39,685 nucleotides of DNA from an uncultured Bacteroidales bacterium (GCA_903917425.1 CAIXAQ010000601.1:1-39685); one strand, 5' to 3'. Numbered from the stretch's first letter, positions 5,665 through 39,685 are shown. Notes: a model not told the origin generated them from the sequence alone. Translations and numbers: made by a program.

Positions 5665-5729
5665 TCAGCCAGCTATTTGATTAAACAATTCGTCACAAAT
5701 TCCAGTACAATTCGTTCACCAATCATATT

Positions 5730-6980
5730 ATGGAAAACGCACTTAAAATAGTTTATATCGGCAATTCTTCCGAAACTATTTCAGCATTGACAGCCAATGA
5801 TGGAATTTCCTTAGAACTTACAAGCAATATTCTTGCTGCGCAGAAACGCCTCACATCAGCCCCAGTCCCTGATGCAATACTCTGCGAAGTAAGCTTTTCG
5901 GGAGGAGAAGGAATAAAGTTATTTGATTGGGTTAGACAGCAATCCTCCTTAAACCCTGTTAGCTTTATACTACTGGCCTTTGAGTTTAAAGAAGATTTGA
6001 TAAAGGAAGCTTTAATAAAGCAGATCGACGATTTTTATGTGATTCCTCTACCTTCTTCTGAAAAAATAATTGGACGGTTAAATTATCTCAAAAATTACCG
6101 GTCGAAACCCGTCCCTATTGACATAAAACCAGATACATTACCTCCAACTCCAAGGTCAAAACGTATTTTTGATATAGTAATGGCCACAGTTGCTCTAATT
6201 GCACTTTCGCCCTTATTACTTATTGTTATTATGGCAATCAAACTTGAATCGAAAGGTAAGTTTTACTACATTTCGAGACGTGTTGGCCGCAAACCTTTCG
6301 ATTTTTACAAGTTGCGTTCCATGCGATCCGGTTCTGATGCTGATCTTAAAGAACTGGCAAAAGCCAAAAATCAATATGCAGTTGCAAGTTTACGAACAGA
6401 GATAGACTTCAGCAAACCATGCCAGGAATGCGCTAAATTGCCAGCCGGGGAAACCTGTTCTCCACTGAGGTATATTGGAGATCAATCTATTTGTGAAAGG
6501 AACTACAAACTCCAGGATATGGAAATAAGCAAGTCCACATTTAACAAAATTGTTGACGACCCGAGGATTACCCGAGTAGGAAGATTTATCCGCAATACCA
6601 GTATTGATGAACTGCCACAACTCATTAACGTGATAAAAGGAGATATGTCAATTGTAGGCAACCGTCCGTTACCGGTTTATGAGGCCGAGAAACTCACAAT
6701 TGGCGGAAAACCTATCGCCAGCGATGGCAAACCAAATATTGACGATATTATACAAAAAGCCAGGTTAGATAACCCAAAAAGGTTTTTAGCCCCAGCAGGC
6801 ATTACAGGGCTTTGGCAGGTTGAACTTCGCGGAAAAGGAGGTGATATGTCGGAAGACGAACGGAAAAAACTTGATATCGACTATTCAGATCACTTTATCG
6901 GTGATGCCTATTCCTTTAAGTACGATTTATGGCTGATCCTCCGCACTTTTAAAGCCCTTTTTCAGAAAGATACTGTATAA
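5730..6980 (+). CDS. Phosphoglycosyl (bacterial sugar) transferase with N-terminal pseudo-receiver domain, paralog 2
   Basis: 416 aa with the same architecture as 3758-4936. It shares the MENAL.IVYIGNS start, CE at the phospho-acceptor position, KRIFD, KLRSM, RVGRFIRNTSIDELPQLINVIKGDMSIVGNRP and PAGITGLWQV. It has the same 4-Cys spacing, plus an extra insert of about 22 aa (GGKPIASDGKPNIDDIIQKARLDN). Confidence 0.85.
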   Translation: MENALKIVYIGNSSETISALTANDGISLELTSNILAAQKRLTSAPVPDAILCEVSFSGGEGIKLFDWVRQQSSLNPVSFILLAFEFKEDLIKEALIKQIDDFYVIPLPSSEKIIGRLNYLKNYRSKPVPIDIKPDTLPPTPRSKRIFDIVMATVALIALSPLLLIVIMAIKLESKGKFYYISRRVGRKPFDFYKLRSMRSGSDADLKELAKAKNQYAVASLRTEIDFSKPCQECAKLPAGETCSPLRYIGDQSICERNYKLQDMEISKSTFNKIVDDPRITRVGRFIRNTSIDELPQLINVIKGDMSIVGNRPLPVYEAEKLTIGGKPIASDGKPNIDDIIQKARLDNPKRFLAPAGITGLWQVELRGKGGDMSEDERKKLDIDYSDHFIGDAYSFKYDLWLILRTFKALFQKDTV

Positions 6981-7007
6981 GCTCAAAAATTCTGTAAATT
7001 TGCAGGT

Positions 7008-7784
7008 ATGATGAGAAGTATAGCGACTCTTTCCCTTCTTGTTTTTTTCCTCTTATGGTTCCCTGAGATAGTTAGTAGCCAGGCGGTTACGGCATTTGAT
7101 CCTATAAAAGAGGATATAAGCAACAAACTGCCCCCTTTGGCTGCGCTAATGGATTCGGCCATTGCAAATAATCCGTATATACGGTTCCGGGACCTGCAGA
7201 TTATAGTGAATAACTGCAAGCTCAAATCCAACGAGGTAGATTGGACGCGAAATATTGGTTTTTCGGCCGATGTGAGATATGGCAATTTTTATAATTATTC
7301 GCAAAATACAGTTGGCGGAATTGAACCACCTGCCGTTGCTACCAATCGTGCCGAAACAAAATGGGGCGGGGCAATTTATTTCAAATTTCCAGTTTACGAT
7401 CTGATTAACAGGAAAAACCAGCTTAAAATGGCCGGCATTGAAGTTGAACAGGCTGAAAATATGGCCGAAGTTCAGCGTAACGAAGTAAGGCAATTGGTTA
7501 TCCGCCAATACAACGAACTTGTTCTGAAACAGCGTTTGCTCAGGGTTAAATCAAAGTTTTTTGAAACTTCGAAAGCGAGTATGATGCTGGTTGAAAAAGA
7601 GTTTATAAATGGAGTAATCCCTTTGACTGAATATACCCGTCTGTCAGAAGCCGCCAACCGCACCGAATCCGATTATGAAGTGACGAGGATGGATTTTCTG
7701 ACAGCATATTTAATACTGGAGGAGATTACCGGAATGGATTTCCACTTAACTAACGAAATATCTGGCTCCAATGAAGGTAATTGA
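7008..7784 (+). CDS. TolC-like outer-membrane protein, short form with one OEP-type repeat
   Basis: 258 aa with a signal peptide (MMRSIATLSLLVFFLLWFPEIVSSQ). A helix / beta-hairpin / long heptad-like helix pattern (LMDSAIANNPYIRF..., AEVQRNEVRQLVIRQYNELV..., PLTEYTRLSEAANRTESDY) resembles half of a TolC/OprM-family protein. It overlaps the next gene by 14 nt. Confidence 0.55.
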   Translation: MMRSIATLSLLVFFLLWFPEIVSSQAVTAFDPIKEDISNKLPPLAALMDSAIANNPYIRFRDLQIIVNNCKLKSNEVDWTRNIGFSADVRYGNFYNYSQNTVGGIEPPAVATNRAETKWGGAIYFKFPVYDLINRKNQLKMAGIEVEQAENMAEVQRNEVRQLVIRQYNELVLKQRLLRVKSKFFETSKASMMLVEKEFINGVIPLTEYTRLSEAANRTESDYEVTRMDFLTAYLILEEITGMDFHLTNEISGSNEGN

Positions 7785-10494
7785 GATTCTGCGCCTGGTT
7801 AAGAAAAATCTGGTAATATTAATTTTTACTCCTGTTATACTATCCGCCCTGGTTTGGTACCTTACCCGCGTCCCGGTATATTCCTATTCATCCGAAACAA
7901 CTCTTTACACTGGGATTGCATCAGGATCGAGTGTTGAAATGGATAAAACTCTGAGCTTTTTTGCAACCAATACCGCATTCGATAACCTGATCAACGTTAT
8001 CAAATCGCGTGAAACCCAGCAGGAAGTTGCAATCCGGCTATTAGCGCAACATCTGATGCTGCCTAAATACGATACGCGCTATATTTCGAAGGATGCGTAT
8101 AACAAGTTGCAGAAAACCACACCTGCATATGTCAAGTCCCTGATTGTTAATTCGCATGGATCACACAGGGTTCAGTATAATAAAAAGCAAGCGGCAACAC
8201 CACAACCCATTTCCCCAAAGCCGCCGGCAAACTACAAACAAAACCAGACACATATAGTAAAAAGCAAGGAAACCCTTTTTTCTATTTCTCAACTGTACGG
8301 TTTAACAGTGGAAGAAATTACTGAAATGAACGAACTCAACGGGAACAATCTTGAGGTTGGGCAGGAACTTATTGTTGGTAAAATTTTTACTGCCAATACA
8401 GAAAACTCATCAGCTGATACAATTGTTGCATCGGAAAGCGACAGCATCTCTTCATTTTCTTTTTCGGATCTTAATTCATCGGATAACTCCATCACAATCC
8501 CGTCCTCCGTGAACCGGGAAGATTTTGAGGAAACTGTTAAAAACCTGGAAGTCTATATGGGCCGCAGTGATACAAATTATGTATATAAATTGCTGTATTT
8601 CAGTCATCCTCACTATTCAATCAAAGCTATTTCATCCGTAAATGTGCAGCGTATCGCGAGCAGCGACCTTGTAAAACTTAAATTCGATGCCGACGAACCC
8701 GGTATTTGCCAGCAGACCCTGGCATTGCTGACCGAGGTGTGCATTAAAAACTATAAGGCCATTAAGGAAAACCGATCAGATGCTGTTGTCAGATATTTTG
8801 AGTTCCAGCTCAAACAAGCTTCCGGCAGGTTGAAAGTGGGAGAAGATAAATTATTGAGTTTCAATGAAGACAATAACATTATTAACTACTACGAACAAAG
8901 TAAGGCCGTTGCCGTGGTAAAGGAAGACCTGGATGTAGACTATAACAACAAGCGAATAAAGTTAGCAGGAACAAAAGCTGCCATAAACCGGATTGAGGAA
9001 AAGTTAGGTACACAAAAACAAATACAACTTAAGAGTTCGGACATAATTGAAAAACGCAACCAGCTTAGCGATGTAAATACAAAAATTGCCGATGCTGAAA
9101 TTGTTGGTTTTGGCAAAACCCTTGACGATAAAGACTTGGTGGCGCTAAAGCAAACTTCCGAAAAACTGAAAGAGGAAATCAGCAACTCAGTAAACGAATT
9201 GTACAGCTATGGTAACACTACCAGCGGTCTCCCGATTAATTCGTTACTCACCGATTGGATTGCGAACGTAATTGAATATGAAGATACGAAGGCTGGCATT
9301 GAAGTACTTGGAGACCGTATCAGGGAATTTCAGAAACAATATGCCATTTATGCGCCTGCAGGGGCGAATCTGAAACGTATCGAACGCGAAATTTCAGTTT
9401 CGGAACAGGAATTTCTTGAAATTTTACATGGATTAAATCTGGCAAAATTAAAAATGCAGGATGCCGAATTATCTTCATCTATTAAAGCGGTCGATCCTCC
9501 ATTCTTCCCTTTATCCCCAAACCCTACCAAAACGAAAATTTTAATTCTTGTTGCCGGCCTGGTTGGTTTTCTAATAGTATTGATCAGCATCCTGGCAACC
9601 GAATATTTTGACGACACGCTTAAAAACCCTGAAAAGGCATCAAAAATCCTTAAGTTACAAACTATAGGCGTTTTTCCAAAAATTTTCCTCAACACCGGTT
9701 CAATCAATTTTCCCTTCGTCACGAACCGTTTGCTGGAAATGACACTGCAGCAGATTGACATGCTTACTGTAAATAAAAAAGACCCGAACGAACCACGGAC
9801 ATTGCTGTTTATGAGTTCCCTGAGTTCGGAAGGGAAAACTGTCAGTGCAGGAAACATTGCCTGGAAACTCAAAAAACAAGGCAAAAACGTTTTATTTCTT
9901 AACTTCTCCCGGGAATCGCTCCGCCAAACCGAAACCAGCCAGATAGGATATCCTGCTGACTCAAAACCAGTGCAGTCGGTAAGAAACATTTCAGAAGGAA
10001 GGTTCCAGTTTATCAGCCGTATGCTCGGCTATGGCGACAACAGGATTAATACCGCCAGCCCTTTTCTTCAAAAACCTGATAACTATCTCGATAATCTGGA
10101 GTATTTCGTTTACCAGGTAAACCACGACTACTTTTCGGCAGGCAACTATACGGATTTACTCGACCGGCAGTATATGTCATTATTGGATAAGCCTGATTAT
10201 GTGATAATCGAACTTCCTCCATTCCTGTATTATTCATACCCGATAAACCTGGTGGCTTCTGCGGATCTGGCAATTATACAATGCAGGGCAAACAGGGTCT
10301 GGACTGGGTCGGATCAGGGTGTATTGGATATATTGAAAAAAGTTACTTTGCACGAACCCGTGGTGCTGCTGAATGGCGTGGAGATACCCGTGTTGGAAAT
10401 TGTGTTGGGCGACTTGCCTAAAAAACGCAGCAAGTTACGGCGAATAGCTAAAAGTATTATTCGTATGCAGGCAGGTTCAAAACATAATGTTTAG
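7771..10494 (+). CDS. Wzc/GumC-like polysaccharide co-polymerase with a periplasmic LysM domain and a degenerate C-terminal P-loop (BY-kinase-like) domain
   Basis: 907 aa. TM1 spans about aa 14-32. A LysM-like segment covers aa 161-204 (HIVKSKETLFSISQLYGLTVEEITEMNELNGNNLEVGQELIVGK). Long coiled-coil region follows, then a proline-rich VDPPFFPLSPNP motif and TM2 (aa 588-610). The C-terminal domain keeps SSEGKT (Walker A-like), but the Walker A' position reads LFLNFS, Walker B reads VIIELPP, and there is no Tyr-rich tail. Confidence 0.85.
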   Translation: MKVIEILRLVKKNLVILIFTPVILSALVWYLTRVPVYSYSSETTLYTGIASGSSVEMDKTLSFFATNTAFDNLINVIKSRETQQEVAIRLLAQHLMLPKYDTRYISKDAYNKLQKTTPAYVKSLIVNSHGSHRVQYNKKQAATPQPISPKPPANYKQNQTHIVKSKETLFSISQLYGLTVEEITEMNELNGNNLEVGQELIVGKIFTANTENSSADTIVASESDSISSFSFSDLNSSDNSITIPSSVNREDFEETVKNLEVYMGRSDTNYVYKLLYFSHPHYSIKAISSVNVQRIASSDLVKLKFDADEPGICQQTLALLTEVCIKNYKAIKENRSDAVVRYFEFQLKQASGRLKVGEDKLLSFNEDNNIINYYEQSKAVAVVKEDLDVDYNNKRIKLAGTKAAINRIEEKLGTQKQIQLKSSDIIEKRNQLSDVNTKIADAEIVGFGKTLDDKDLVALKQTSEKLKEEISNSVNELYSYGNTTSGLPINSLLTDWIANVIEYEDTKAGIEVLGDRIREFQKQYAIYAPAGANLKRIEREISVSEQEFLEILHGLNLAKLKMQDAELSSSIKAVDPPFFPLSPNPTKTKILILVAGLVGFLIVLISILATEYFDDTLKNPEKASKILKLQTIGVFPKIFLNTGSINFPFVTNRLLEMTLQQIDMLTVNKKDPNEPRTLLFMSSLSSEGKTVSAGNIAWKLKKQGKNVLFLNFSRESLRQTETSQIGYPADSKPVQSVRNISEGRFQFISRMLGYGDNRINTASPFLQKPDNYLDNLEYFVYQVNHDYFSAGNYTDLLDRQYMSLLDKPDYVIIELPPFLYYSYPINLVASADLAIIQCRANRVWTGSDQGVLDILKKVTLHEPVVLLNGVEIPVLEIVLGDLPKKRSKLRRIAKSIIRMQAGSKHNV

Positions 10495-10502
10495 ATACTG
10501 GT

Positions 10503-11846
10503 ATGAAAAAAGCCCTTGGTAAAATAACCCGTGAAGCTAACTTCCTTTCGTTGGCAGGAAACCTCACGATTGCTTTTTTTGGCTTCGCAGGTTTTGCATT
10601 ATTGGCTCGTACTTTTCCTGTCGATATTTTTGGTCAGTGGGTTTTGTATATTTCTTCGGGTACTTTTATCGAAATGTTTCGTTTCGGGATTACCAATACA
10701 GCCATTATCCGCTACCTATCGGGTGTGGACAAAGACGACAGGATGAAATATGTGGGTTCGAACGGCCTGATCGGGCTTATAGCCACAACTTTTATAGCTA
10801 TTATTCTTTGGTCGTGCCACCTGCTATTCCCAATACCGATTAAAAATGCCGGGTACGAACTTTTTTTTACCTGGTATCCCCTGCTGGCTTTTGTAAATCT
10901 TCCGCTCAATACAGCCCTTGTGATTATGCAGGCTGATCAGAAGTTCGGAAAAATCCTGATGGTTAAATCAATTAACAGCGGAGGATTTTTCCTTGTGCTT
11001 TTACTCAACTACCTGTTTCTTGACATGTCGCTCATGCAATTGGTTTGGGCACAGTTAATAATAGTCCTGATAACTTCGGTAATCTGTGTGGCCAATGGCT
11101 GGGATGGATTGAGACATATCCGCAAAGCGACAAAGCGCACCAACAAAGTTCTGCTCGATTTTGGAAAATACACCACTTTCACCCTGATAGGCACTAACCT
11201 GCTACGAAGTGCCGATACGCTCATTATCAGCCTTAGCCCTATGGGGACAGCAGCTGTAGCTTTATACAGCATTCCTATGAAATTAACTGAGCTACAGCAA
11301 ATTCCGCTCCGGAGTTTTGTGGCAACCGCATTCCCTAAAATGTCGAAGGCAAGCATACAAGGCAAGATTGAAGAGGTGAAATCTATTTTTTATTCCTATT
11401 CGGGGGCCATGTCGTACCTGTTCATTTTCATCAGTCTTTTCACCCTGGTGTTTGCCGAGTTCTTTGTTTTGGTTTTAGGTGGCAAACAATACGTACATAC
11501 CGAGGCCGTGATGATTGTCCGCATATTTTCATTGTACGGATTGCTGCTCCCCATCGACCGAATGACGGGCGTCGGGCTCGACAGCATTAACAAACCCGAC
11601 AGGAATTTTATTAAAGTAATGATCATGGTTGTTGCCAATGTAATCGGCGACCTGATTGCGATTTTTGTCTTCAAATCATTGCCTATGGTTGCAGTAGCTT
11701 CCATACTTTTTACGGCCATAGGAATTTGGGTAGGATTTCGATTTTTAAACAGCGAACTTCACCTTTCACATAGGCTGGTTTTTACGGCAGGAATAGATTT
11801 CTATAAGGAAATGTATTATAAATTCAAGAAAAACTTACGTCGGTAA
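10503..11846 (+). CDS. Wzx-like oligosaccharide flippase (MOP/polysaccharide biosynthesis protein family)
   Basis: 447 aa. It is multi-spanning and hydrophobic throughout, with the size and topology typical of Wzx, and sits between the co-polymerase and the polymerase. Confidence 0.8.
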   Translation: MKKALGKITREANFLSLAGNLTIAFFGFAGFALLARTFPVDIFGQWVLYISSGTFIEMFRFGITNTAIIRYLSGVDKDDRMKYVGSNGLIGLIATTFIAIILWSCHLLFPIPIKNAGYELFFTWYPLLAFVNLPLNTALVIMQADQKFGKILMVKSINSGGFFLVLLLNYLFLDMSLMQLVWAQLIIVLITSVICVANGWDGLRHIRKATKRTNKVLLDFGKYTTFTLIGTNLLRSADTLIISLSPMGTAAVALYSIPMKLTELQQIPLRSFVATAFPKMSKASIQGKIEEVKSIFYSYSGAMSYLFIFISLFTLVFAEFFVLVLGGKQYVHTEAVMIVRIFSLYGLLLPIDRMTGVGLDSINKPDRNFIKVMIMVVANVIGDLIAIFVFKSLPMVAVASILFTAIGIWVGFRFLNSELHLSHRLVFTAGIDFYKEMYYKFKKNLRR

Positions 11847-11891
11847 ATTGAAGAAATACCATAACAGCATATATTCCTCGCTTTAAATATT

Positions 11892-13397
11892 ATGCTCAAT
11901 AAGTCAAATCCGTTCGAAACAGTTTCAGGCTCAGGTAAGTTGGGTACACCCAAGTACGTTGCCTTGCTTCTTGGCGTAACTGTAATTTCAGGATTACTTA
12001 TTGGTAAATCGGGGCTCATAGCAGGGATTGGCCTTGTGTTTCTTCCTTTCATCCTTATTTATTTCAATTATTTCTTCCGGTTTCCTGAAATTGGTTTATA
12101 CACAGCCATCGGTCTCGGATTCCTGATTTTAGGCCTGGGACGGTATATTAAAGGATTGCAGTTGGGCATGGCCATGGATGGCATCTTGTTTTTGACCTAT
12201 ATCGTATTAATATTCAATCGTTTCCGCGACAGGGTTGACTGGTCGCCAGCCAAAAAAGATGTTACCCTGTTGGCAGCCATCTGGTTTGCCTATTCCATTA
12301 TTGAAGTTGCCAATCCCGAGTCGCGCAGTGTGCCTGCATGGCTGGCCGGCATGCGTGGTATATCGTTGTATATGATGTTGATGATCCCGTTAACATTGCT
12401 CTTTTTTAATACCAACCGCAAAGTAGATACTTTTCTCACGCTTTGGGGCGTATTCTCATTACTTGCAACCTTTAAAGGCATTCTGCAAAATACAATAGGG
12501 GTCGATCCCTGGGAAAAAGCCTGGCTTGATGGAGGAGGTGCAATTACTCATATCCTATTCGGCAAACTCCGGATTTTTTCATTTTTCAGCGATGCAGGCC
12601 AGTTTGGTGCTAATCAGGGATATACAGGGGTCGTATTTATAATTATTTCGCTGGTTGAGAAAAGCAAACCCAGGAAAATATTTTTACTCCTCGTTGGGAT
12701 ATTAGGACTATACGGAATGTTACTTTCGGGTACGCGTGGCTCTATTAGTGTGCCTTTAGCCGGGTTTGCTCTCTATTTCATTCTCAAGAAGAATAAAACC
12801 GTCATGATTTCAGGATTTTTCATGATGATGTTAGTATTTGCATTTTTTAAATTCACGCTCATTGGCCAGGATAATCAACAGATACGCCGTATGCGTTCGG
12901 CTTTCGACCCTAACGACGCATCGCTCCAGGTAAGACTCGAGAACCAAAAGAAACTAAAAGTTTACCTGGCCACACGTCCTATGGGAGGCGGAATTGGCCA
13001 TGCTGGGGTTAAGGCGGCAAAATACCTTCCAAATGCCTATCTTTCGTCGGTTGCCACCGATAGCTGGTATGTCCTCATTTGGGCCGAGCAAGGAATCATC
13101 GGGTTGAGTCTGCATCTTTTTATCCTGTTTTATATTCTCATTAAGGCCTCGTACCTAATCATGTTCAGGATTCGCGACCCGATAGTTAAGATAAAAATGG
13201 CTGCTTTGGCATCAGGTATGTTTGGCGTAATGGTTGCGTCCTATGGAAATGCCGTTTTGGGCACTATGCCGACCGGTATGCTGATTTATGTATCAATGGC
13301 ATTGATGCTCAATTCCGATGTACTCGATGCCGATGCCCTGGCAAATCAGGAATTGGCTTCCGCTTCAATACCAGTAAATGCAGGCAAACCCAGTTGA
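11892..13397 (+). CDS. Wzy-like polymerase / O-antigen ligase family membrane protein
   Basis: 501 aa polytopic membrane protein. The central SGTRGS motif and following loop are typical of the O-antigen ligase (Wzy_C) family. Confidence 0.8.
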   Translation: MLNKSNPFETVSGSGKLGTPKYVALLLGVTVISGLLIGKSGLIAGIGLVFLPFILIYFNYFFRFPEIGLYTAIGLGFLILGLGRYIKGLQLGMAMDGILFLTYIVLIFNRFRDRVDWSPAKKDVTLLAAIWFAYSIIEVANPESRSVPAWLAGMRGISLYMMLMIPLTLLFFNTNRKVDTFLTLWGVFSLLATFKGILQNTIGVDPWEKAWLDGGGAITHILFGKLRIFSFFSDAGQFGANQGYTGVVFIIISLVEKSKPRKIFLLLVGILGLYGMLLSGTRGSISVPLAGFALYFILKKNKTVMISGFFMMMLVFAFFKFTLIGQDNQQIRRMRSAFDPNDASLQVRLENQKKLKVYLATRPMGGGIGHAGVKAAKYLPNAYLSSVATDSWYVLIWAEQGIIGLSLHLFILFYILIKASYLIMFRIRDPIVKIKMAALASGMFGVMVASYGNAVLGTMPTGMLIYVSMALMLNSDVLDADALANQELASASIPVNAGKPS

Positions 13398-13778
13398 AAT
13401 GTTTTTCGGATGTCGCGCTATTTCAGGTGGAGCCGTTTTTAGCAGCTGTAATCAGGCAGTAATTATTACTTGATTTATTTTCAGGAATAGGGATTTATGC
13501 TTTCATCTCATTGTGCTGATATTCTGAGTTTTGAAATTTTTAGAATTGAGGTTAAAGAAAAAATGACCAGGGTATTTTACCCGGGAAATTATTAATTAAA
13601 TTAACAGATAATAATAGGCATTCAGGATGATAAAATTTATTACTTTTAACTGTTTTATCAATAAACAATAAACATCTGTCGTTTTGCCTGTAAATTCAGT
13701 TTTTGTCTTTGTGCCTATTTCTGTTCAAGGCTGGCTTAATTTATCAGGAACTTCCGACTCCTACATTTTTTCAATAAT

Positions 13779-32219: not shown

Positions 32220-34445
32220 TTAATTACCAACTTCCGAGATATATTTAATACGTACCAGCCTGATTTCCTCCTCGGTGAATTCATTTTCGCCCAAATCTCT
32301 CAGCGCCTGTTCCACCGAATCGGTTTCTGCTTCCATAAAATAATCCCTTATCTCCTCCTGGTGGTAAGGATCTATGGTTTCGTTGAGGTAGTAAGTCAGG
32401 TCAATTTTTGTGCCCGAATCAACAATACTTTCGATTTCAGTAAGCAATTCGTCGGCGGTAAGATTTTTTGCCGTGGCTATATCCTCCAGCAAAATTTTAC
32501 GGTCAATATTTGTAATAATATAGACCTTCAGCCCTGATTTATTGACCACAGATTTTACTATCATATCCATCGGGCGAATAATTTCATTTTCTTCAACGTA
32601 GGATGAAATAAGTTCCAGGAACGGCTTTCCGTATTTTTGCGCTTTACCGGCTCCTACACCGGTAATACGCTGCAGCTCGTCCATATTGATAGGATACTGT
32701 ATAGCCATGTCCTCGAGCGAAGGATCCTGGAAGATCACGAAAGGAGGCAGACTTTCTTTACGCGCAAGTTCCTTGCGAAGATCCTTAAGCAACGAAAACA
32801 AGGTTTTATCCGTAGTGCTGGTTCGAGCACCGCCACCCGACATCATTTCATCATCGTCGCCTTCTTCCGGATCTGTATCTTTTACTACCATAACGGCATA
32901 AGGTTTTTTTAGAAACTTTTGTCCTTCAGGAGTTATTTTTAAAATCCCATAATTTTCAATATCTTTTACTACGAGCCGTTCAATAAGCATCTGCCGGAGC
33001 ACCCCATCCCAGAAACGCTCGCTTTCTTCCATGCCCTTACCGAAAATATCAAGTTCGTTGTGCTTGTATGATTTGATGTTGGATGAAACTTTCCCAATCA
33101 TGATGTTTACAATGTGCTTTGCCTTACACAACTGTTTGGTTGCCAATACCGCTTCCAGCGCAAGGTCGACGTACTCGCGTCCATCAATTTTCGTTTTGGG
33201 ATGCAGGCAGTTGTCGCAGTTACCACAATTATCCTCCTTATATACTTCGCCGAAATAGTGGAGCAATTGCTTGCGCCGGCACATGGCCGATTCGGCAAAT
33301 GACACTACTTCCATTAAAAGCTGGTTGGCAATTTCCTGCTCGGCAACACCTTTGTTTTTGCTGAATTTTTCGAGTTTTTCGATATCCTCGTAGGCGTAAA
33401 ATGCCAGGCAAATCCCTTCCCCGTCATCGCGTCCTGACCGCCCGGTTTCCTGGTAATAGCCTTCAAGGCTTTTGGGCATGTCGTAATGGATTACAAAACG
33501 GACATCAGGTTTATCTATACCCATCCCGAAAGCTATTGTTGCAACAATAACATCCGATTCCTCCATCAGAAACTTATCCTGGTTCTCAACCCTCACAGCC
33601 GAATCGAGACCAGCATGGTAAGGCAAAGCTTTGATACCGTTAACTACCAGTGTTTCTGAAAGTTCCTCGACCTGGCGACGGCTGAGGCAATAAATAATCC
33701 CCGATTTACCGGTATGCATTTTTATGAACCGGATCACATCCTTGTTCACATCGGCATTTTTCTGCTTTACCTCATAGTAAAGGTTCGAACGGTTGAATGA
33801 CGATTTGTAGAGAGCTGCTTCCTGCATGCCCAGACTTTTCAGGATATCCTGCTGTACTTTGGGTGTAGCAGTGGCTGTTAATGCAAGCACCGGAACATCC
33901 TGGCCAATAGCATCTATTATGGGGCGAAGCCGGCGGTATTCCGGCCTGAAATCATGACCCCACTCCGAAATGCAATGCGCTTCGTCGATAGCATAAAACG
34001 AAATTTTTATGTCCCTGAAAAAAGAGATGTTTTCCTCTTTTGTAAGCGATTCGGGTGCTACATAAAGCAACTTTGTTTTCCCTTCGGTCAGATCGCTTTT
34101 AACCTGCGTGATCTCTGCCTTCGAAAGGGATGAGTTAAGTACATGAGCTATGCCTTTGTCGGCACCAAACTGCCGCATGGCATCCACCTGATTCTTCATC
34201 AACGAGATAAGGGGTGAAATAACTATGGCAGTACCGGGCAGGAACATCGCCGGCAACTGGTAGCACATCGACTTCCCTCCGCCGGTAGGCATAATTACGA
34301 ATGTATCGTTTCCGCTAAGTAAATTACGTATTATTGCTTCCTGATTCCCTTTAAAACTCTCAAATCCAAATATTTTTTTGAGTGTGGTGTGTAAAGGATA
34401 ATCCTTGAAATCTTCATTTTTTTTCATTCCACGAGCATTATTCAA
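32220..34445 (-). CDS. recQ: ATP-dependent DNA helicase RecQ
   Basis: 741 aa with FGFESFKGNQ, MPTGGGKS, DEAHCISEWGHDFRPEY, LTATAT and QETGRSGRDG-like motifs, a 4-Cys zinc-binding region (CRRKQLLHYFGE...CGNCDNC) and a C-terminal HRDC-like region. The start could instead be Met7 (34427). Confidence 0.95.
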   Translation of the reverse strand: MNNARGMKKNEDFKDYPLHTTLKKIFGFESFKGNQEAIIRNLLSGNDTFVIMPTGGGKSMCYQLPAMFLPGTAIVISPLISLMKNQVDAMRQFGADKGIAHVLNSSLSKAEITQVKSDLTEGKTKLLYVAPESLTKEENISFFRDIKISFYAIDEAHCISEWGHDFRPEYRRLRPIIDAIGQDVPVLALTATATPKVQQDILKSLGMQEAALYKSSFNRSNLYYEVKQKNADVNKDVIRFIKMHTGKSGIIYCLSRRQVEELSETLVVNGIKALPYHAGLDSAVRVENQDKFLMEESDVIVATIAFGMGIDKPDVRFVIHYDMPKSLEGYYQETGRSGRDDGEGICLAFYAYEDIEKLEKFSKNKGVAEQEIANQLLMEVVSFAESAMCRRKQLLHYFGEVYKEDNCGNCDNCLHPKTKIDGREYVDLALEAVLATKQLCKAKHIVNIMIGKVSSNIKSYKHNELDIFGKGMEESERFWDGVLRQMLIERLVVKDIENYGILKITPEGQKFLKKPYAVMVVKDTDPEEGDDDEMMSGGGARTSTTDKTLFSLLKDLRKELARKESLPPFVIFQDPSLEDMAIQYPINMDELQRITGVGAGKAQKYGKPFLELISSYVEENEIIRPMDMIVKSVVNKSGLKVYIITNIDRKILLEDIATAKNLTADELLTEIESIVDSGTKIDLTYYLNETIDPYHQEEIRDYFMEAETDSVEQALRDLGENEFTEEEIRLVRIKYISEVGN

Positions 34446-35061
34446 ATGTTCACATCAAAATCTGATGCTTGTTATATTAGTTTTTATTCAGCCTTTTTAT
34501 CGTCTGCGGGAACAGGTTTTAGTGTTAAAATTAACTCTGCCCGGCACTATTTTTTATTCAGACTCCGCACTACAATTTTAACACAACTACGATGTCATGA
34601 TTAAATCCGACTTAATCGAGTAAAACTTTTGCTATTTGACTTTGTGTTAGGTAAAGTTAATACAACTTTATAGTTAATCGCAAAAAAAAATGTTATTTCT
34701 CCGTCTTTTTTTAGTTTAATTAAATCAATCCGCTTACAATCAGCCATTTATAGTATATGGCACAAATAAATAATTAAGAAATAAATTACTTATCAGCTTA
34801 TTTTTCAACAATCAGGTCCATTTTCCGAACCCCTACTGCCTATCCCCCTGAAACCGGAATCAATTTGAAGAGGACCCCTACTTCAAACAGGATACTCAAA
34901 AAGCGTGCAAAAGTATAATTAAAATCAAAACAACCGGCGAATTTATTTTTTTATTATTTTCAGACGGTTCTCCTGCCCGGAACTTATCTTTTCATAATTT
35001 TCCGGTTTTGTAACCCGCTAATTATGAGTAAAAAAATCTTATTTTCAGTAAGTAAAAAAAC

Positions 35062-35069
35062 TATATTTG
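35062..35069 (+). promoter_or_regulatory. Candidate Bacteroidota -7 promoter element (TAtaTTTG) upstream of the BMC operon
   Basis: It matches the TAnnTTTG consensus and ends 48 nt upstream of the ATG at 35117. I did not see a clean TTTG -33 element at the expected spacing. Confidence 0.3.
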
Positions 35070-35116
35070 CATGACGTTATAATATATATTGCAATTCAAA
35101 AAAAAGGGAGAAAACC

Positions 35117-35740
35117 ATGATAGACCTGAGAACATATATTTTTATCGATTCACTGCAACTGCAGATGGCTTCGTATTTATCCACAGTGTCGAAGGGATAC
35201 CTGCCGGTAAGCGGGCAAGCCTGCTGTATAATCGAAATTGCTCCGGGCATTGAGATTAACACGCTTACCGATATTGCATTAAAAGCAACCCATGTGAAGC
35301 CTGGAATGCAGATAGTTGAACGTGCATACGGTTTGCTCGAAGTACATTCCGATAGCCAGGGCGATGTACGCATGGCAGGCGAAGCAGTACTAAAAACTAT
35401 TGAGAAAACTGAAGATGACAGGATCAAACCGCGCATACTGACAAGCCAGTTAATAAAAAATGTGGAAGATCATCATGCTCAATTAATCAACCGGACCCGT
35501 TACGGAATGATGTTGCTCAAAGGTGACACCTTGTTTGTACTGGAGGTTGAACCTGCAGGATATGCATACTATGCTGCCAACGAAGCCGAAAAAACCGCTC
35601 ATATCAACATTATTGATGTAATAGGATTTGGCAAATTTGGCCGGGTATATATTGCCGGCGACGAAGCCGAAGTGCTGGAATGCAAAAACATTGTTGAAAA
35701 GCGTCTTGCTGAAATTTCGGGAAGAGAAGATTATAAATAA
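35117..35740 (+). CDS. Tandem-domain BMC shell protein (BMC-T class, possibly permuted EutL/PduB-like)
   Basis: 207 aa with two BMC-like halves: IIEIAPGIEINTLTDIALKATHV...GLLEVHSDSQGDVRMAGEAVLKTI and LFVLEVEPAGYAYYAANEAEKTAHINIID...GRVYIAGDEAEVLECKNIVEKRL. It lies directly upstream of canonical shell genes. Confidence 0.7.
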   Translation: MIDLRTYIFIDSLQLQMASYLSTVSKGYLPVSGQACCIIEIAPGIEINTLTDIALKATHVKPGMQIVERAYGLLEVHSDSQGDVRMAGEAVLKTIEKTEDDRIKPRILTSQLIKNVEDHHAQLINRTRYGMMLLKGDTLFVLEVEPAGYAYYAANEAEKTAHINIIDVIGFGKFGRVYIAGDEAEVLECKNIVEKRLAEISGREDYK

Positions 35741-35768
35741 GTAATAATAAATTTTAAACTGATAAATC

Positions 35769-36071
35769 ATGAATGACAACACATCAGACGCATTAGGAAT
35801 GATTGAAACCAGGGGCTTTGCCGCTATGGTTGAGGCTTCGGATGCAATGGTTAAAGCTGCAAGAGTTGAACTCATCGGCTTCGAAAAAATTGGCGGCGGT
35901 TACGTAACTGCAATTGTCCGTGGCGATGTGGCATCAGTAAGAGCTGCTGTCGACGCTGGCGTGCAGGCTGCGCAAAAAGTAGGCGAGATAGTTTCGTCAC
36001 ATATAATTCCACGTCCGCATGCCAATGTTGACAGTGCTTTGCCACTGGGCAGGGGAAGTGTCAAGAAATAG
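35769..36071 (+). CDS. BMC-H hexameric shell protein (PduA/EutM/CcmK family)
   Basis: 100 aa. [57 protein letters not shown]...IIPRPH is a textbook PF00936 sequence. Confidence 0.95.
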
Positions 36072-36152
36072 GAATCCTCTCTACCCGGCAATAACATGCC
36101 ACGGTGTGGACCGACATGCATGGGTTCAATTTAATCAATAACTGGAATCACA

Positions 36153-36443
36153 ATGATACTTGCAAGGGTGGTTGGAACTGTAGTTTCAAGTCATAAAGCT
36201 CCCAAAATAGAAGGGATTCGTTTTTTGCTTGTCGAAAAAATTGACCCTGTAACTATGAAGGGGAAAAACGACTTTGTCGTATCCATGGATAGTGTGGGAG
36301 CCGGGATAGGTGAAATTGTCTTCTATGTTTCAGGAAGCAGTGCGCGCATGACCGGTGTAACCGAAGGAAAGCCAAGCGATTCAGCCATCATTGCTATAGT
36401 TGATAACATTGAAAAGGACGGCAAATTCACTTACCGGAAATAA
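36153..36443 (+). CDS. BMC-P pentameric vertex protein (EutN/CcmL family), copy 1
   Basis: 96 aa. MILARVVGTVVSS...VVSMDSVGAGIGEIVFYVSGSSAR...AIIAIVD is collinear with EutN. Confidence 0.93.
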   Translation: MILARVVGTVVSSHKAPKIEGIRFLLVEKIDPVTMKGKNDFVVSMDSVGAGIGEIVFYVSGSSARMTGVTEGKPSDSAIIAIVDNIEKDGKFTYRK

Positions 36444-36452
36444 AAACTGGCC

Positions 36453-36740
36453 ATGATCCTTGGAAAAGTTGTAGGAACCATCGTGAGTAGCACCATTAAT
36501 GATGGGATGAAAGGATCGCGTTACCTTTTGATTGATAAAACGGATCAGCACGGAAGCAGGAAAGGCGATTATGTGGTTGCACTCGATATTATCGGGGTTG
36601 CCCGCGATGAACTTGTGATGGTAGCCGAGGGCAGCCCTGCAAGAGAAACTCCTGTTACCACCAATAAACCTGTTGATGCCCTGATTGTGGGAATTGTAGA
36701 TATTATAGATGAATACGACACGATTATTTACAGGAAATAA
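36453..36740 (+). CDS. BMC-P pentameric vertex protein (EutN/CcmL family), copy 2
   Basis: 95 aa. MILGKVVGTIVSS...VVALDIIGVARDELVMVAEGSPAR...ALIVGIVD. Confidence 0.93.
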   Translation: MILGKVVGTIVSSTINDGMKGSRYLLIDKTDQHGSRKGDYVVALDIIGVARDELVMVAEGSPARETPVTTNKPVDALIVGIVDIIDEYDTIIYRK

Positions 36741-36750
36741 GGAGGTTCGA

Positions 36751-37305
36751 GTGGAAATAATCGCGTTAGGGGCACTGGAATTCAGCAGTATAGCCATCGG
36801 CATACTGGCATTGGATGAAATGGTAAAAGTTGCCCCGATCAAAATCATTGAGGCTCGTACCATGTGCCCCGGCAAATACATTATCGTTTTCACCGGGGAT
36901 GTAGCTTCTGTTGATTATTCGTTCCAAAAAGGCCTCGAAACCGGCAAGGAACTGATTGTTGACAGTTTGTTCCTCCCGATGATACACCCTGACGCAATGG
37001 CAGCAATTGGTAAGGTCATTCAAGTAAGCGAATGGTCGGCCATAGGAATTATCGAAACACTTACTGTTGTGTCCGGCATCGAAGCCGCTGATCTGGCGGC
37101 TAAGATTGGAGGCGTAAAAATCATAGAAGTGCGACTTGCAATAGGATTCGGAGGCAAATCCTATGTAAAATTAATGGGAAGCCTCGATGCTGTTCAAGCC
37201 GCGATGCAGGCCGGAACGGAAGCAGCCAGGGCCAAAAAACTCTTGTGTATGGCAACACTCATTCCACAGCCTCATATTGAAACACGGCCCTATTTCATGC
37301 AATAA
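36751..37305 (+). CDS. PduT-like tandem BMC-T shell protein with a conserved pore cysteine
   Basis: I prefer the GTG at 36751, preceded by AAGGAGG (36739-36745), to the track's ATG at 36709. This avoids a 32-nt overlap and aligns the N-terminus (VEIIALGALEFSSIA) with PduT (MSQAIGILELTSIA). TMCPGKYIIVF matches PduT TICPGKFLLML. The second domain reads AIGIIETLTVVSGIEAAD...IPQPH. Confidence 0.88.
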   Translation: MEIIALGALEFSSIAIGILALDEMVKVAPIKIIEARTMCPGKYIIVFTGDVASVDYSFQKGLETGKELIVDSLFLPMIHPDAMAAIGKVIQVSEWSAIGIIETLTVVSGIEAADLAAKIGGVKIIEVRLAIGFGGKSYVKLMGSLDAVQAAMQAGTEAARAKKLLCMATLIPQPHIETRPYFMQ

Positions 37306-37314
37306 GCGAACATA

Positions 37315-38730
37315 ATGGAAAATCTGGAAGAAAGCGTAAGGCAGATTATAAAGGACGTTATTAAAGGCATGGATCTCAGCCTGCCAAAAGATGCTGCAAC
37401 TGACAGTTTAGGTGTATTTCCTACAATCAGCAAGGCAATTGATGCTTCCGAACTGTCATTCAGGGAGTTTGGCAAGCTTTCGCTGGAAATCCGGAAAAAC
37501 ATCATTTCCAACATCCGGAAAGTCTGCCAGGCAAACAAGGAAATTATTTCCAAAATGGCATGGAAAGAAACCGGTTTAGGCCGTTGGGAAGATAAAGTGA
37601 TTAAGAATGAGCTGGGTATTTTAAAAACACCCGGCGTTGAAGACCTGGTTGCCGAAGCCTTTTCCGATGATTCCGGCCTGACGCTGGTTGAAAGGGCGCC
37701 TTACGGCATTATAGGTTCCATTACTCCGAGCACCAACCCTACCGTGACTATCATCAGTAATACCATCGGAATGATTTCCGGAGGAAATTCTGTTGTTTTT
37801 AACCCGCACCCCTCTTCAAAAAAAGTCTCTGCATTCCTTGTTACCCTGCTCAACAAAGCAATTATTGAAGCCGGAGGGCCGGCAAACCTGGTTAGCTGTA
37901 TTGCCGAACCTACTATCGAATCGGCAAAAGACCTGATGACTCATCCAAAAATTGCCATACTGGTTGTAACCGGCGGACCTGCCGTTGTAAGGGTTGCGAT
38001 GAACAGCGGTAAAAAAGTAATTGCCGCCGGTCCCGGAAACCCGCCATGCGTTGTTGACGAAACCGCCGACATTGCAAAAGCAGGCAAGGACATAGTAGAT
38101 GGTGCCAGCTTCGACAACAATGTAATTTGCATCTGCGAGAAGGAGATTATCGTGGTTGCATCGGTTGCTGACAGGTTAAAGGAGGAAATGAAGAAAAACG
38201 GTGCTTACGAACTGAATGAGTACCAGATAAAAAAAATCACCGAACTCGTCATTGCCGAACCTGGCGGACCCGGGAACGAAGGAGCTGCCAATAAAAATTA
38301 TGTTGGCAAAAATGCCGATTTTATAGCAAAACAAATCGGGCTTACCGTCCCTCCTTCAACCCGCTTGTTGCTTTGTGAGGTGGGCCGCGAACATCCTTTG
38401 GTTTGGACAGAGCAATTAATGCCGGTAATGCCTTTGGTACGGGTAAAAGATGTAGATATTGCCATCGAAATGGCGGTTGAAGTTGAGCATGGATTCAGGC
38501 ATACCGCCATCATGCATTCGCTGAATATTGCCAAGCTGAGCAAAATGGCGAAAGCCATGAATTGTTCCATTTTTATAAAAAACGGACCTAGTTATGCCGG
38601 GCTAGGCCACGGTGGCGCAGGATTTGCTTCATTCACCATTGCCAGTCCCACCGGCGAAGGCGTTACCCGCGCCCGCACTTTTACCAGGGAAAGACGATGC
38701 ACAGTGGTGGATTATTTCAGGATTATCTAG
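37315..38730 (+). CDS. CoA-acylating aldehyde dehydrogenase (PduP/EutE-like) with an N-terminal encapsulation-type helix
   Basis: 471 aa. The catalytic region is FDNNVICICEKE (compare FDNNLPCIAEKE in PduP). Other motifs are ITPSTNP and GGPAVV. The N-terminal MENLEESVRQIIKDVIKGM is amphipathic and is followed by a linker-like segment. Confidence 0.92.
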   Translation: MENLEESVRQIIKDVIKGMDLSLPKDAATDSLGVFPTISKAIDASELSFREFGKLSLEIRKNIISNIRKVCQANKEIISKMAWKETGLGRWEDKVIKNELGILKTPGVEDLVAEAFSDDSGLTLVERAPYGIIGSITPSTNPTVTIISNTIGMISGGNSVVFNPHPSSKKVSAFLVTLLNKAIIEAGGPANLVSCIAEPTIESAKDLMTHPKIAILVVTGGPAVVRVAMNSGKKVIAAGPGNPPCVVDETADIAKAGKDIVDGASFDNNVICICEKEIIVVASVADRLKEEMKKNGAYELNEYQIKKITELVIAEPGGPGNEGAANKNYVGKNADFIAKQIGLTVPPSTRLLLCEVGREHPLVWTEQLMPVMPLVRVKDVDIAIEMAVEVEHGFRHTAIMHSLNIAKLSKMAKAMNCSIFIKNGPSYAGLGHGGAGFASFTIASPTGEGVTRARTFTRERRCTVVDYFRII

Positions 38731-38789
38731 GGATATTTGATAGAAAGCAGTTACCTACCATACTAAAAGACACGAAATTTCATAAATAG

Positions 38790-38804
38790 TTCCCATATTG
38801 GGAA
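38790..38804. promoter_or_regulatory. Candidate higBA operator: inverted repeat TTCCCA-tat-TGGGAA
   Basis: Two 6-bp perfect arms with a 3-nt centre. It ends 34 nt upstream of the preferred HigB start at 38838. Confidence 0.35.
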
Positions 38805-38837
38805 TTTTTGATTATCTTTGCATCACTATTCGGGTTT

Positions 38838-39134
38838 ATGGAAAGAATATTTGCAAAAAGTACGCTGAGAGACTTTTGGGATGCACATCCAGATTCCGAA
38901 CAATACCTGAAGACCTGGTTTGATACGGCAATGAGTTCTAACTGGAATACACCTAATGAAGTTAAACAGACATATATAAATGCAAGTATTCTGAAAGACA
39001 GTAGAATTGTTTTTAACATCAAAGGCAATTCCTACAGGCTGGTAGTAAAATTCAACTTTGAGAAACAATGGATATTTATCCGTTTCATTGGAACTCATGT
39101 TGAGTACAATAAGATTGATGCAAACACAATTTAA
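38838..39134 (+). CDS. higB: Type II toxin HigB-family mRNA interferase (RelE superfamily)
   Basis: I prefer the start at MERIFAKSTLRDFWDAHPDSEQYLKTWFD (38838). ...NIKGNSYRLVVKFNFEKQWIFIRFIGTHVEYNKID matches the HigB toxin family pattern (98 aa). Confidence 0.85.
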   Translation: MERIFAKSTLRDFWDAHPDSEQYLKTWFDTAMSSNWNTPNEVKQTYINASILKDSRIVFNIKGNSYRLVVKFNFEKQWIFIRFIGTHVEYNKIDANTI

Positions 39135-39144
39135 ATTTCAGAAA

Positions 39145-39513
39145 ATGGAAATAAAACCAATAAAAACTGAAACCGACTATAGCCAGGCACTGAAAAGGCT
39201 TGAAACCATTTTTAGTGCAGAAATTGGAACCACTGAAAGCGATGAAGCAGATGTGCTTGGACTGCTGATTGATGAATATGAAAAAAAACATTATCCGATT
39301 GAAGCACCAGATCCGATTGAAGCGATTAAAATAAGAATGGAAGAAATGCAGCTTAAACAGAGCGATCTGGTAAATGAACTTGGAGGAAAGAGCCGGGTTT
39401 CGGAAATATTAAACCGGAAAAGAAAACTGACTGTTGAAATGATCCGAAAATTAACTGCCAGATTAAACCTTTCACCCGGATTATTAATCAATGACTATCA
39501 ACTGACAAGATAA
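39145..39513 (+). CDS. higA: HigA-family antitoxin with C-terminal XRE-type HTH
   Basis: I prefer the start at MEIKPIKTETDYSQALKRLE (39145), 10 nt after the higB stop. The N-terminal helical region is followed by an HTH (LKQSDLVNELGGKSRVSEILNRKRKLTVEMIRKL). Confidence 0.85.
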   Translation: MEIKPIKTETDYSQALKRLETIFSAEIGTTESDEADVLGLLIDEYEKKHYPIEAPDPIEAIKIRMEEMQLKQSDLVNELGGKSRVSEILNRKRKLTVEMIRKLTARLNLSPGLLINDYQLTR

Positions 39514-39685
39514 TGTACGGTTGGCAAAAAAGGCATAAAAAATGTCGTGTTTTGGAGTCTATTTGAAGCTTGGTTGCCCGAATGATCAATCGTGTTGAAA
39601 AACTCAACCATCGCAAATCTGCAAAACGTCAAATTCAATAATGTGAGCCAGAGCAAACAAGCATTTTATGATATTTAAATTGCCA

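Follow-up and report, generated by a model that had tools for sequence, protein, structure and literature searches.

Shell and enzyme genes at the end of a Bacteroidales contig are very probably the 5' half of an SPU2-type microcompartment operon

Results

The six bacterial microcompartment (BMC) genes at positions 35117-38730 of the window (the whole stretch of 39,685 nt that was analysed) are very probably the 5' half of an SPU2-type (sugar-phosphate-utilising) operon for deoxyribose 5-phosphate, into which a higBA-mrr cassette was later inserted without inactivating it. The full order would be T(dp)-H-P-P-T(s)-AldDh-(higB-higA-mrr insert)-P-P-RpiB-DERA, and the operon would sit between a divergent recQ and kpsF in a Lentimicrobiaceae-like Bacteroidales genome. 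Such a locus is nothing out of the ordinary: it belongs to an already catalogued BMC type that is among the most widespread. A preliminary description of this DNA had presented it as a compact locus with an aldehyde dehydrogenase (AldDh) as the only cargo and an open substrate. Two public contigs that extend the locus reveal the SPU2 enzymes instead; the AldDh-only appearance arises because the window stops before the signature enzymes, which the higBA-mrr insert has displaced. The gain lies in annotating the locus correctly, as SPU2 with predicted deoxyribose 5-phosphate catabolism, and in a warning against taking a BMC locus for minimal when it stops at a contig edge or at a mobile insert.

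Gene content of the window

Domain matches give strong support to five shell genes and one CoA-acylating AldDh (Table 1), as the preliminary description had proposed. Its account of the boundaries also holds: the gap of about 670 nt to the divergent recQ measures 671 nt, and higBA follows the AldDh gene directly, the window ending 172 nt past the higA stop.

Table 1. Features of the microcompartment locus and its surroundings, in window coordinates.
Feature	Position	Strand	Support
recQ / T(dp) intergenic region, 671 nt	34446-35116	.	recQ divergent
BMC-T(dp), CcmP-like, double-stacking tandem-domain shell trimer, 207 aa	35117-35740	+	NCBIfam CcmP 281 bits
BMC-H shell hexamer, 100 aa	35769-36071	+	PF00936 1e-31; EutM model 127 bits
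BMC-P pentamer copy 1 (P1), 96 aa	36153-36443	+	PF03319 1e-23
BMC-P pentamer copy 2 (P2), 95 aa	36453-36740	+	PF03319 8.5e-23
BMC-T(s), PduT-like, 184 aa	36751-37305	+	TIGR02526 117 bits; PF00936 x2; PDB PduT 1e-33
CoA-acylating AldDh, 471 aa	37315-38730	+	PRK15398 671 bits (cutoff 403)
Left part of 2.0-kb inserted defence islet	38731-39685	+	PF09907, HTH_3, extension L083
higB	38838-39134	+	PF09907 6e-30
higA	39118 (or 39145)-39513	+	HTH_3; TIGR02607 below cutoff

The T(dp) protein aligns end to end with the CcmP structure (PDB 5lsr, E=2e-68) and over its full length with HO-5816 and CcmP (E about 1e-66 to 1e-68), and the alignment includes the 'ER' gate motif. The BMC-H is the sole one in this lineage, and the two BMC-P copies share 44% identity. 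The T(s) protein keeps its pore cysteine in 'CPGK', aligned with the PduT pore cysteine in the PDB 3nwg and 3pac alignments. An alternative ATG for T(s) at 36709 would give 198 aa and overlap P2; the public gene call has 184 aa.

AldDh matches PDB 5jfl (5e-146) from aa 27 onward, and its catalytic cysteine is conserved. At its N-terminus lies a predicted encapsulation peptide (EP), formed by an amphipathic helix at aa 1-19 (37315-37371) and a linker to about aa 26; the hydrophobic moment of the helix (0.7-0.8) and its conservation pattern both fit such a peptide. The succession of amphipathic N-terminal helix, variable linker and catalytic domain is conserved at the sequence level in 77 AldDh and 71 DERA sequences, and the N-terminal extensions of both enzymes appear typical of EPs. 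As previously described, no signature enzyme, PTAC or alcohol dehydrogenase (AlcDh) was found within the window, nor was PduS. Searches elsewhere in the window for homologues of P3/P4, RpiB and DERA returned none, and scans for Rfam families and tRNAs over the full 39,685 nt were negative.

Continuation of the operon beyond the window

Positions 38960-39685, the final 726 nt of the window, recur without gaps and at 100% identity in a public same-strain contig from another metagenome (L083); through this overlap the downstream half was joined to the window. Past the window end the contig encodes mrr, BMC-P, BMC-P, RpiB and DERA, with DERA and RpiB located 2.1 kb past that end. An 18-kb ENA contig with an identical AldDh spans the whole locus and has, by its gene calls, the same gene list. 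The nearest genome (L002, 95% DNA identity) shows the same layout. Extending the contig downstream was among the checks that the preliminary description had proposed, and one of its three readings, in which the locus continues past the toxin-antitoxin insertion, is the one borne out.

P3 and P4 overlap by 4 nt and adjoin RpiB-DERA, bringing the PF03319 genes to four. The DERA orthologue of L002 belongs to the class I DeoC family (TIGR00126, 283 bits; cutoff 117), and DERA keeps the Schiff-base lysine, the second lysine and the aspartate motifs; at the level of sequence, the catalytic residues of DERA and AldDh are intact. RpiB lies directly 5' of DERA (PF02502, 4e-48; PRK05571, 160 bits, cutoff 135), and its catalytic cysteine is replaced by aspartate in 74/74 loci, a replacement reported earlier for the SPU RPI. 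An EP on RpiB was considered and rejected: the upstream in-frame stretch is unlike an amphipathic helix plus linker and is not conserved outside close relatives. The SIS-CBS gene kpsF, 3' of DERA, was likewise rejected as a locus member, as it travels with recQ in other lineages. Neither PTAC (pfam06130) nor an alcohol dehydrogenase is encoded in the locus or its flanks (window and 18-kb contig gene list).

Assignment to the SPU2 type

AldDh is followed directly, and in order, by P-P-RpiB-DERA in 57 of the 58 related Bacteroidales loci that have at least 4.5 kb of downstream sequence; about 60 related species share the arrangement. In enzymes and shell proteins alike, the locus agrees item by item with SPU2 as described in the Sutter 2021 catalogue. 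Features that define an SPU locus are there, namely a DeoC-type aldolase (pfam01791), a CoA-acylating AldDh and an RpiB (pfam02502), which in SPU loci usually lies beside DERA, as it does here. So are those of SPU2: AldDh, DERA and RpiB as the only enzymes (18-kb contig and L002/L083 gene lists), a CcmP-like T(dp) with one PduT-like T(s) bearing the pore cysteine, and predicted N-terminal EPs on AldDh and DERA. In the catalogue the T(s) pore cysteine is present in about 80% of SPU2 loci, one or two BMC-H are allowed, and PTAC, AlcDh and TPI are rare. The missing PTAC and AlcDh are a known SPU2 feature and no new puzzle.

Four catalogued SPU2 main loci are among the retrieved orthologues: GWF2_33_38 (L044), GWA2_30_7 (L039), GWA2_32_17 (L054) and GWF2_41_31 (L075). 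They come from the same phylum, share gene order and inventory with the present locus, and have AldDh 72-76% identical to it. Common to all are a CcmP-like T(dp), BMC-H, four BMC-P, a PduT-like T(s) with pore cysteine, AldDh with N-terminal EP, RpiB and DERA, and none has PTAC, AlcDh or TPI. The T(dp) orthologue of GWA2_32_17 is catalogued as Tdp_petrol1_ccmPlike, the T(s) orthologues as Ts_dullYellow_SPU2, and the 95-aa P2 orthologues of GWF2_33_38 and GWA2_30_7 as P_kermit_spu2like. The present lineage differs from the catalogued loci in lacking the upstream BMC-H, which leaves it with one, and in the 2-kb higBA-mrr insert between AldDh and the third BMC-P. An additional BMC-H lies 5' of T(dp) in 60/64 relatives.

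For the BMC-P proteins of SPU2, Sutter 2021 lists a grey and orange pair and a green clade with an extra green copy. The BMC-P count (4) and pairing in this locus fit these clades, and the P2 orthologue is 'kermit' (green) in two catalogued genomes.

An already classified type interrupted by higBA is the outcome that the preliminary description had named as speaking against its own reading, and it is what we find, the type being SPU2 rather than PVM, GRM, PDU or EUT. Its remark that BMC loci of Bacteroidota are little studied stands for experimental work; the catalogue, however, already places most SPU2 loci in Bacteroidetes and Spirochaetes (Sutter 2021).

Two other systems share shell components with this locus. 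The Haliangium ochraceum (HO) BMC also has multiple BMC-P genes, and its HO-5816 aligns with our T(dp), but neither DERA nor RpiB is encoded in the HO main locus. CcmP of the beta-carboxysome aligns with T(dp) too, but carboxysomes are anabolic and have no AldDh.

Predicted pathway and direction of flux

On the model of Sutter 2021 and Dwyer 2024, the shell would take up deoxyribose 5-phosphate released when DNA or deoxynucleosides are broken down. There DERA would cleave it to acetaldehyde and glyceraldehyde 3-phosphate, the latter leaving for glycolysis, and the co-encapsulated AldDh would convert acetaldehyde to acetyl-CoA, using NAD+ and CoA. The predicted substrate is therefore not lactaldehyde but deoxyribose 5-phosphate, converted through acetaldehyde to acetyl-CoA. 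The PDU/EUT paradigm has PTAC and alcohol dehydrogenase for CoA/NAD+ recycling, in contrast to this locus and its flanks. For a locus that has neither PTAC nor AlcDh, the large gated T(dp) pore is the presumed route of acetyl-CoA/CoA and NAD(H) exchange. RpiB would probably be mainly a packaging partner of DERA.

A biochemical precedent is SPU6 of Chloroflexi, whose DERA is active in vitro and for which a deoxyribose-5-phosphate pathway model exists (Dwyer, Sutter & Kerfeld 2024, PMC11585597). As here, SPU6 has a signature DERA with an N-terminal helical extension, an RPI without the catalytic cysteine and AldDh as a core enzyme, and deoxyribose 5-phosphate is proposed to yield G3P and acetaldehyde, then acetyl-CoA. 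The systems differ in that the AldDh EP is C-terminal in SPU6 and N-terminal in this locus, the SPU6 RPI has a long N-terminal EP whereas our RpiB has no clear one, and the SPU6 T(dp) belongs to another clade.

The alternative that survives best keeps the SPU2 assignment and has the compartment run in the aldehyde-scavenging (condensing) direction, or act as a general aldehyde detoxifier, with AldDh capturing fermentation aldehydes and/or DERA condensing them with glyceraldehyde 3-phosphate. The DERA reaction is reversible, which lends itself to this reading. A homologous BMC of Atribacteria has been interpreted as recycling aldehydes in secondary fermentation (PMC7542362), and the canonical catabolic scheme is incomplete in this locus, which lacks PTAC and AlcDh and has a puzzling RpiB. 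Against scavenging, both the authors of the catalogue and the one biochemical study, with its active SPU6 DERA, favour cleavage of deoxyribose 5-phosphate, and AldDh is of the acetaldehyde-oxidising, CoA-acylating type. We consider scavenging unlikely; as to the direction of flux itself, nothing in the present data discriminates. The recycling of CoA and NAD+ in the absence of PTAC, AlcDh and PduS, and the function of the cysteine-less RpiB, are questions already posed in the literature, for which a cultivable Bacteroidales with an SPU2 locus would be a reasonable model.

The higBA-mrr insert

The cassette appears to have entered the AldDh-P3 spacer later, in the orientation of the operon, and not to have inactivated it. 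The left junction of the cassette falls within ~20 nt 3' of the AldDh stop, its left part holds a palindrome (TTCCCATATTGGGAA, 38790-38804), and the restriction gene mrr would begin at 39688, three bases beyond the window end. The spacer is too diverged among relatives to place the right junction precisely. In most relatives the AldDh-P3 spacer is 4-250 nt. PADLOC, run on the L002 orthologues, reported PD-Lambda-2_A/B-like matches and mREase_IV (279 bits). A PD-Lambda-2 system consists of a HigB toxin with an HTH antitoxin, a full-length B (about 400 aa) and a third gene. The A match reached 128 bits, and the B match was limited to positions 1-121 of 402; the genes therefore probably represent a HigBA-like pair rather than a complete PD-Lambda-2.

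All ten other inserts at this spacer are likewise co-oriented with the operon. The inserts include HigBA with Mrr, Dam with DndB/DpdB-like proteins, Schlafen/AlbA_2-HATPase, HARE-HTH, PD-(D/E)XK and Avd-like IVP proteins. Small defence or selfish genes have thus landed repeatedly between AldDh and P3, and the mrr allele has been exchanged between close relatives; both observations are mildly new. It is a long shot that the junction is a dedicated landing pad, placing nuclease-type defence genes under an operon induced by DNA-breakdown products. Immunity by DNA degradation would then be functionally linked to a compartment that consumes the deoxyribose set free.

One might instead suppose that the insertion split the operon and left this lineage with a decaying remnant of the locus. 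A 2-kb foreign cassette does lie between AldDh and the P-P-RpiB-DERA half, a hairpin/palindrome lies just 3' of the AldDh stop, and the upstream BMC-H has been lost. Yet none of the ten BMC genes is truncated in same-strain contigs, and substitutions since the shared insertion are mostly synonymous: across the six BMC genes, the window and L002 differ by 121 synonymous against 23 non-synonymous codons, and by 38 against 0 in T(dp), H and P1 together. The shared orientation of this and the ten other inserts, and the one or two BMC-H that the catalogue permits in SPU2, also speak against decay, which we regard as improbable.

Other readings of the locus

The preliminary description had also raised a satellite locus for the core enzymes and, speculatively, lactaldehyde from 6-deoxyhexoses as in the planctomycetal type. 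A PVM-like BMC for fucose/rhamnose-derived lactaldehyde would resemble this locus in being a metabolosome with an acylating AldDh for a sugar-derived aldehyde, and PTAC and AlcDh, absent from the locus, could be encoded elsewhere. PVM loci, however, carry a class II aldolase (pfam00596), PTAC and related enzymes. Class II aldolase and PTAC are absent from the window, L002, L083 and the 18-kb contig gene list, the 18-kb contig has no PVM-type genes, and the main locus itself holds the signature enzyme, a class I DeoC-family DERA (TIGR00126). We give this reading very little credence.

The third reading, a minimal BMC whose only cargo, AldDh, acts on a cytosolic aldehyde, could invoke the absence of any other shell-linked enzyme in the window and catalogued AldDh-only types such as MIC7 (Sutter 2021), but it is already refuted for practical purposes by the L083 extension, in which RpiB and a DERA with an EP-like conserved N-terminus follow in the same strain, and by the relatives in which RpiB-DERA adjoin AldDh-P-P directly.

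Regions upstream of T(dp) and higB

No remnant of the additional BMC-H was found in the gap between recQ and T(dp). Scans for sigma-70 promoters and intrinsic terminators around the insert and at the operon start gave counts at the level of shuffled sequence and were uninformative. The Bacteroidota motif TAnnTTTG occurs 5' of both T(dp) and higB, as candidate -7 boxes TATATTTG at 35062-35069 (+), 48 nt 5' of the T(dp) ATG, and TATCTTTG at 38813-38820. The promoter assignment is only suggestive, because the motif has a background of ~0.5 per kb per strand. Two blocks of the recQ-T(dp) gap are conserved in relatives: the palindrome TAAAGTT-AATAC-AACTTTA at 34652-34670, and a second block at ~34895-34933 that contains TACTTTTG on the minus strand (34915-34908).

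Gene content and continuation of the locus

ORF listing and profile searches recovered every gene of the preliminary description at the positions in the table, with the divergent recQ as the upstream boundary (gap of 671 nt), higB and higA 3' of the CoA-acylating aldehyde dehydrogenase (AldDh), and the window ending 172 nt past higA. The tandem double-stacking BMC-T, T(dp), can be aligned along its whole length with CcmP (5lsr) and with the T(dp) of H. ochraceum (E about 1e-68). The pore cysteine in the "CPGK" motif of the single BMC-T, T(s), aligns with PduT, and AldDh matches the BMC enzyme 5jfl (5e-146) with its catalytic Cys conserved. The rest of the window was scanned and gave no further BMC-related gene.

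The locus goes on past the toxin-antitoxin genes, as one of the earlier readings had proposed, with mrr, two BMC-P genes, RpiB and deoxyribose-5-phosphate aldolase (DERA, DeoC) following on two contigs. Look-up of the exact AldDh protein led to an 18,184-bp ENA contig, known from gene calls alone, whose gene coordinates equal those of the window minus 33,348; past higB-higA it lists an Mrr-type restriction gene, BMC-P twice, RpiB, DeoC, a KpsF-like SIS-CBS protein, CMD and more. Look-up of the exact HigA led to L083, a same-strain extension whose first 726 bases are window positions 38960-39685 with 0 mismatches and 0 gaps; its DERA gene, 3' of RpiB, runs off the contig end. Within the GTDB set, the nearest genome, the Bacteroidota MAG L002, shows the same layout at 95% DNA identity over the cluster.

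Features of the BMC locus, its upstream gap and a related locus (window or window-equivalent positions unless a contig is named)
Feature	Position	Remarks
Perfect 7-5-7 palindrome	34652-34670	TAAAGTT-AATAC-AACTTTA
Second conserved block	about 34895-34933	candidate Bacteroidota -7 box, perfect match, TACTTTTG, minus strand, 34915-34908
T(dp), tandem-domain BMC-T	35117-35740	NCBI CcmP model, 281 bits
BMC-H	35769-36071	
BMC-P, two genes	36153-36443 and 36453-36740	
T(s), PduT-like BMC-T	36751-37305	alternative ATG at 36709
CoA-acylating AldDh	37315-38730	471 aa; PRK15398, 671 bits
mrr	start 39688	on L083
BMC-P, two genes (P3, P4)	40739-41014 and 41011-41280	on L083
RpiB	to 41822	on L083
PduS-like gene	L081 8019-9350	443 aa; between P2 and T(s)

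Assignment to SPU2

In the catalogue of Sutter 2021, sugar-phosphate-utilisation (SPU) loci combine pfam01791 (DeoC), pfam02502 (RpiB), AldDh and at least three BMC-P. Its type SPU2 (53 loci, chiefly in Bacteroidetes and Spirochaetes) has AldDh, DeoC and RpiB as its only enzymes. Its shell genes are BMC-H (one or two), BMC-P (a triplet and one additional copy), a CcmP-like T(dp) and a single T(s); this T(s) carries a pore Cys in 80% of the loci, and only a quarter of them have a PduS partner for it. The present locus agrees on every item, and four genomes of the retrieved orthologous loci (GWF2_33_38, GWA2_30_7, GWA2_32_17 and GWF2_41_31) stand as "SPU2 (main)" in the catalogue tree files; it follows that the locus belongs to a previously classified type, SPU2, interrupted by higBA. 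Of the preliminary interpretation, the continuation past the insertion holds, and the framing as a minimal BMC of open substrate falls: it was an artefact of the window edge, with P-P-RpiB-DERA lying just past it. The suggested lactaldehyde (PVM-like) substrate is unsupported because a class II aldolase is absent from the window, L002, L083 and the gene list of the 18-kb contig.

The 80 related loci retrieved, nearly all from Bacteroidales/Lentimicrobiaceae MAGs with a few from Spirochaetota, have AldDh identities of 69% to 98% and a common gene order, [H]-T(dp)-H-P-P-T(s)-AldDh-P-P-RpiB-DERA. Where the sequence extends 4.5 kb or more past AldDh (58 loci), P-P-RpiB-DERA comes directly 3' of it in 57; the sole exception is L002, with the same insert as the window. 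The extra BMC-H 5' of T(dp), present in 60/64 relatives, is missing, with no remnant left, from the window, L002, L003 and a few others.

The AldDh-P3 spacer as an insertion point

The spacer between AldDh and P3 measures 4-250 nt in most relatives (median about 51) and some 2.0 kb in the window lineage, occupied there by higB, higA and mrr, each in the same orientation as the operon. In PADLOC, Mrr is classed as a type IV methyl-directed restriction enzyme (279 bits); HigB and HigA are similar to PD-Lambda-2 A and to the N-terminal portion of B, so that they form a HigBA-like pair and not the complete system. The window and L002 both carry the insert, and the codon differences between their six BMC genes are 121 synonymous against 23 non-synonymous (38 against 0 for T(dp), H and P1 together); the genes 3' of the insert are full length. 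Purifying selection has therefore continued to act on the operon after the insertion.

This spacer is a recurrent insertion point: it contains an insert of 400 bp or more in 11/76 loci, compared with 4/73 for P4-RpiB and at most one for every other spacer. The spacers noted are those of the window (38731-39685), L002, L006/L011, L009, L017, L029, L031/L036/L054 and L044/L042. At least seven different cargoes are represented, all on the operon strand: higBA with mrr; a HARE-HTH protein; SLFN_AlbA_2 with HATPase_c_4; a Dam methylase with a membrane protein and a DndB/DpdB-like protein; PDDEXK_3; and two kinds of 23S_rRNA_IVP/Avd-like four-helix-bundle proteins.

The insert itself varies. mrr has been replaced in place between L083 (572-1739) and L002 (4641-5692): the proteins are only 34% identical, and the flanks keep 93.5-94.2% DNA identity on both sides. 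The window and the independent 17-kb contig L082 break off at an identical base, 2 nt short of where mrr starts, which suggests that population heterogeneity there breaks assemblies. L001, a 99.8%-identical contig, lacks at its position 5979 about 191 nt (window 38799-38989) comprising the start and 5' half of higB; one end of the deletion falls within the palindrome TTCCCATATTGGGAA (38790-38804), and past it identity to the window is only 97%. Thus the toxin-antitoxin cassette, too, differs among members of the population.

Enzymes and proposed pathway

The DERA orthologue scores 283 bits against the NCBI deoC equivalog (cutoff 117) and shares about 60% identity with DERAs of solved structure, retaining the lysines of FVKTSTGF and GVKASGG and the aspartate of ELDMV. 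Its N-terminal extension of 45 residues opens with a segment strongly conserved across 71 loci (residues 1-18, MDQNELIDKITKEVMQRL), followed by a variable linker. The AldDh N-terminus is analogous, an amphipathic MENLEESVRQIIKDVIKGM (hydrophobic moment 0.7-0.8) and a linker, the 5jfl alignment of the catalytic domain beginning at residue 27.

RpiB (L002 6349-6816, L083 2396-2863) passes the PRK05571 profile and showed no convincing encapsulation peptide. In 74/74 loci examined an Asp replaces its catalytic Cys, which likens it to LacA and to the SPU6 RPI, reported as nearly inactive. Dwyer et al. 2024 (PMC11585597) found that the SPU RPI binds DERA and has almost no activity towards ribose 5-phosphate, and proposed a packaging role; the Asp agrees with these findings. 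The BMC-associated RpiB is probably a non-isomerase or scaffolding protein.

Beside the gene content, residue conservation, encapsulation-peptide-like termini and cross-species conservation observed here, the literature on the family offers a pathway. Deoxyribose 5-phosphate would be taken into the shell, AldDh would convert acetaldehyde to acetyl-CoA and, PTAC being absent, acetyl-CoA and cofactors would pass the gated T(dp) pore. The other direction, towards aldehyde scavenging or condensation, as discussed for Atribacteria (PMC7542362), seems to us less probable here. How SPU2 recycles its cofactors and what RpiB does there are questions that the literature already poses. Among the related loci a PduS homologue occurs only in L081, from Spirochaetota, and in none of the Bacteroidales loci, though most keep the T(s) pore cysteine; this pattern matches the recent PduS loss noted in the catalogue.

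Genomic surroundings

In several relatives (e.g. L030, L037, L057 and L061) recQ and a KpsF/KdsD-like arabinose-5-phosphate isomerase gene are divergent direct neighbours. In the window clade the whole 8-10 kb BMC locus lies between recQ (window 32220-34445) and kpsF (3' of DERA, at L002 7958-9001), consistent with its having moved as a block. The recQ-T(dp) gap (34446-35116), which gave no Rfam match, contains two blocks near-invariant across relatives, whose distance from recQ is constant. One possibility is that these blocks form a recQ-side promoter/operator, another that they are a small RNA.

Upstream of the BMC locus, the window encodes an exopolysaccharide/capsule cluster, a hybrid histidine kinase, a T9SS cargo protein, CstA and OmpH. 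Window positions 1-13400 include a low-GC stretch (30-32% over 1001-3000, about 42% elsewhere) nearly devoid of long ORFs. Two tandem pairs of a stand-alone response regulator and a Bac_transf sugar transferase (3316-4936 and 5272-6980) lie 3' of it, followed by a Wza/Wzc/Wzx/Wzy-like polysaccharide export set.
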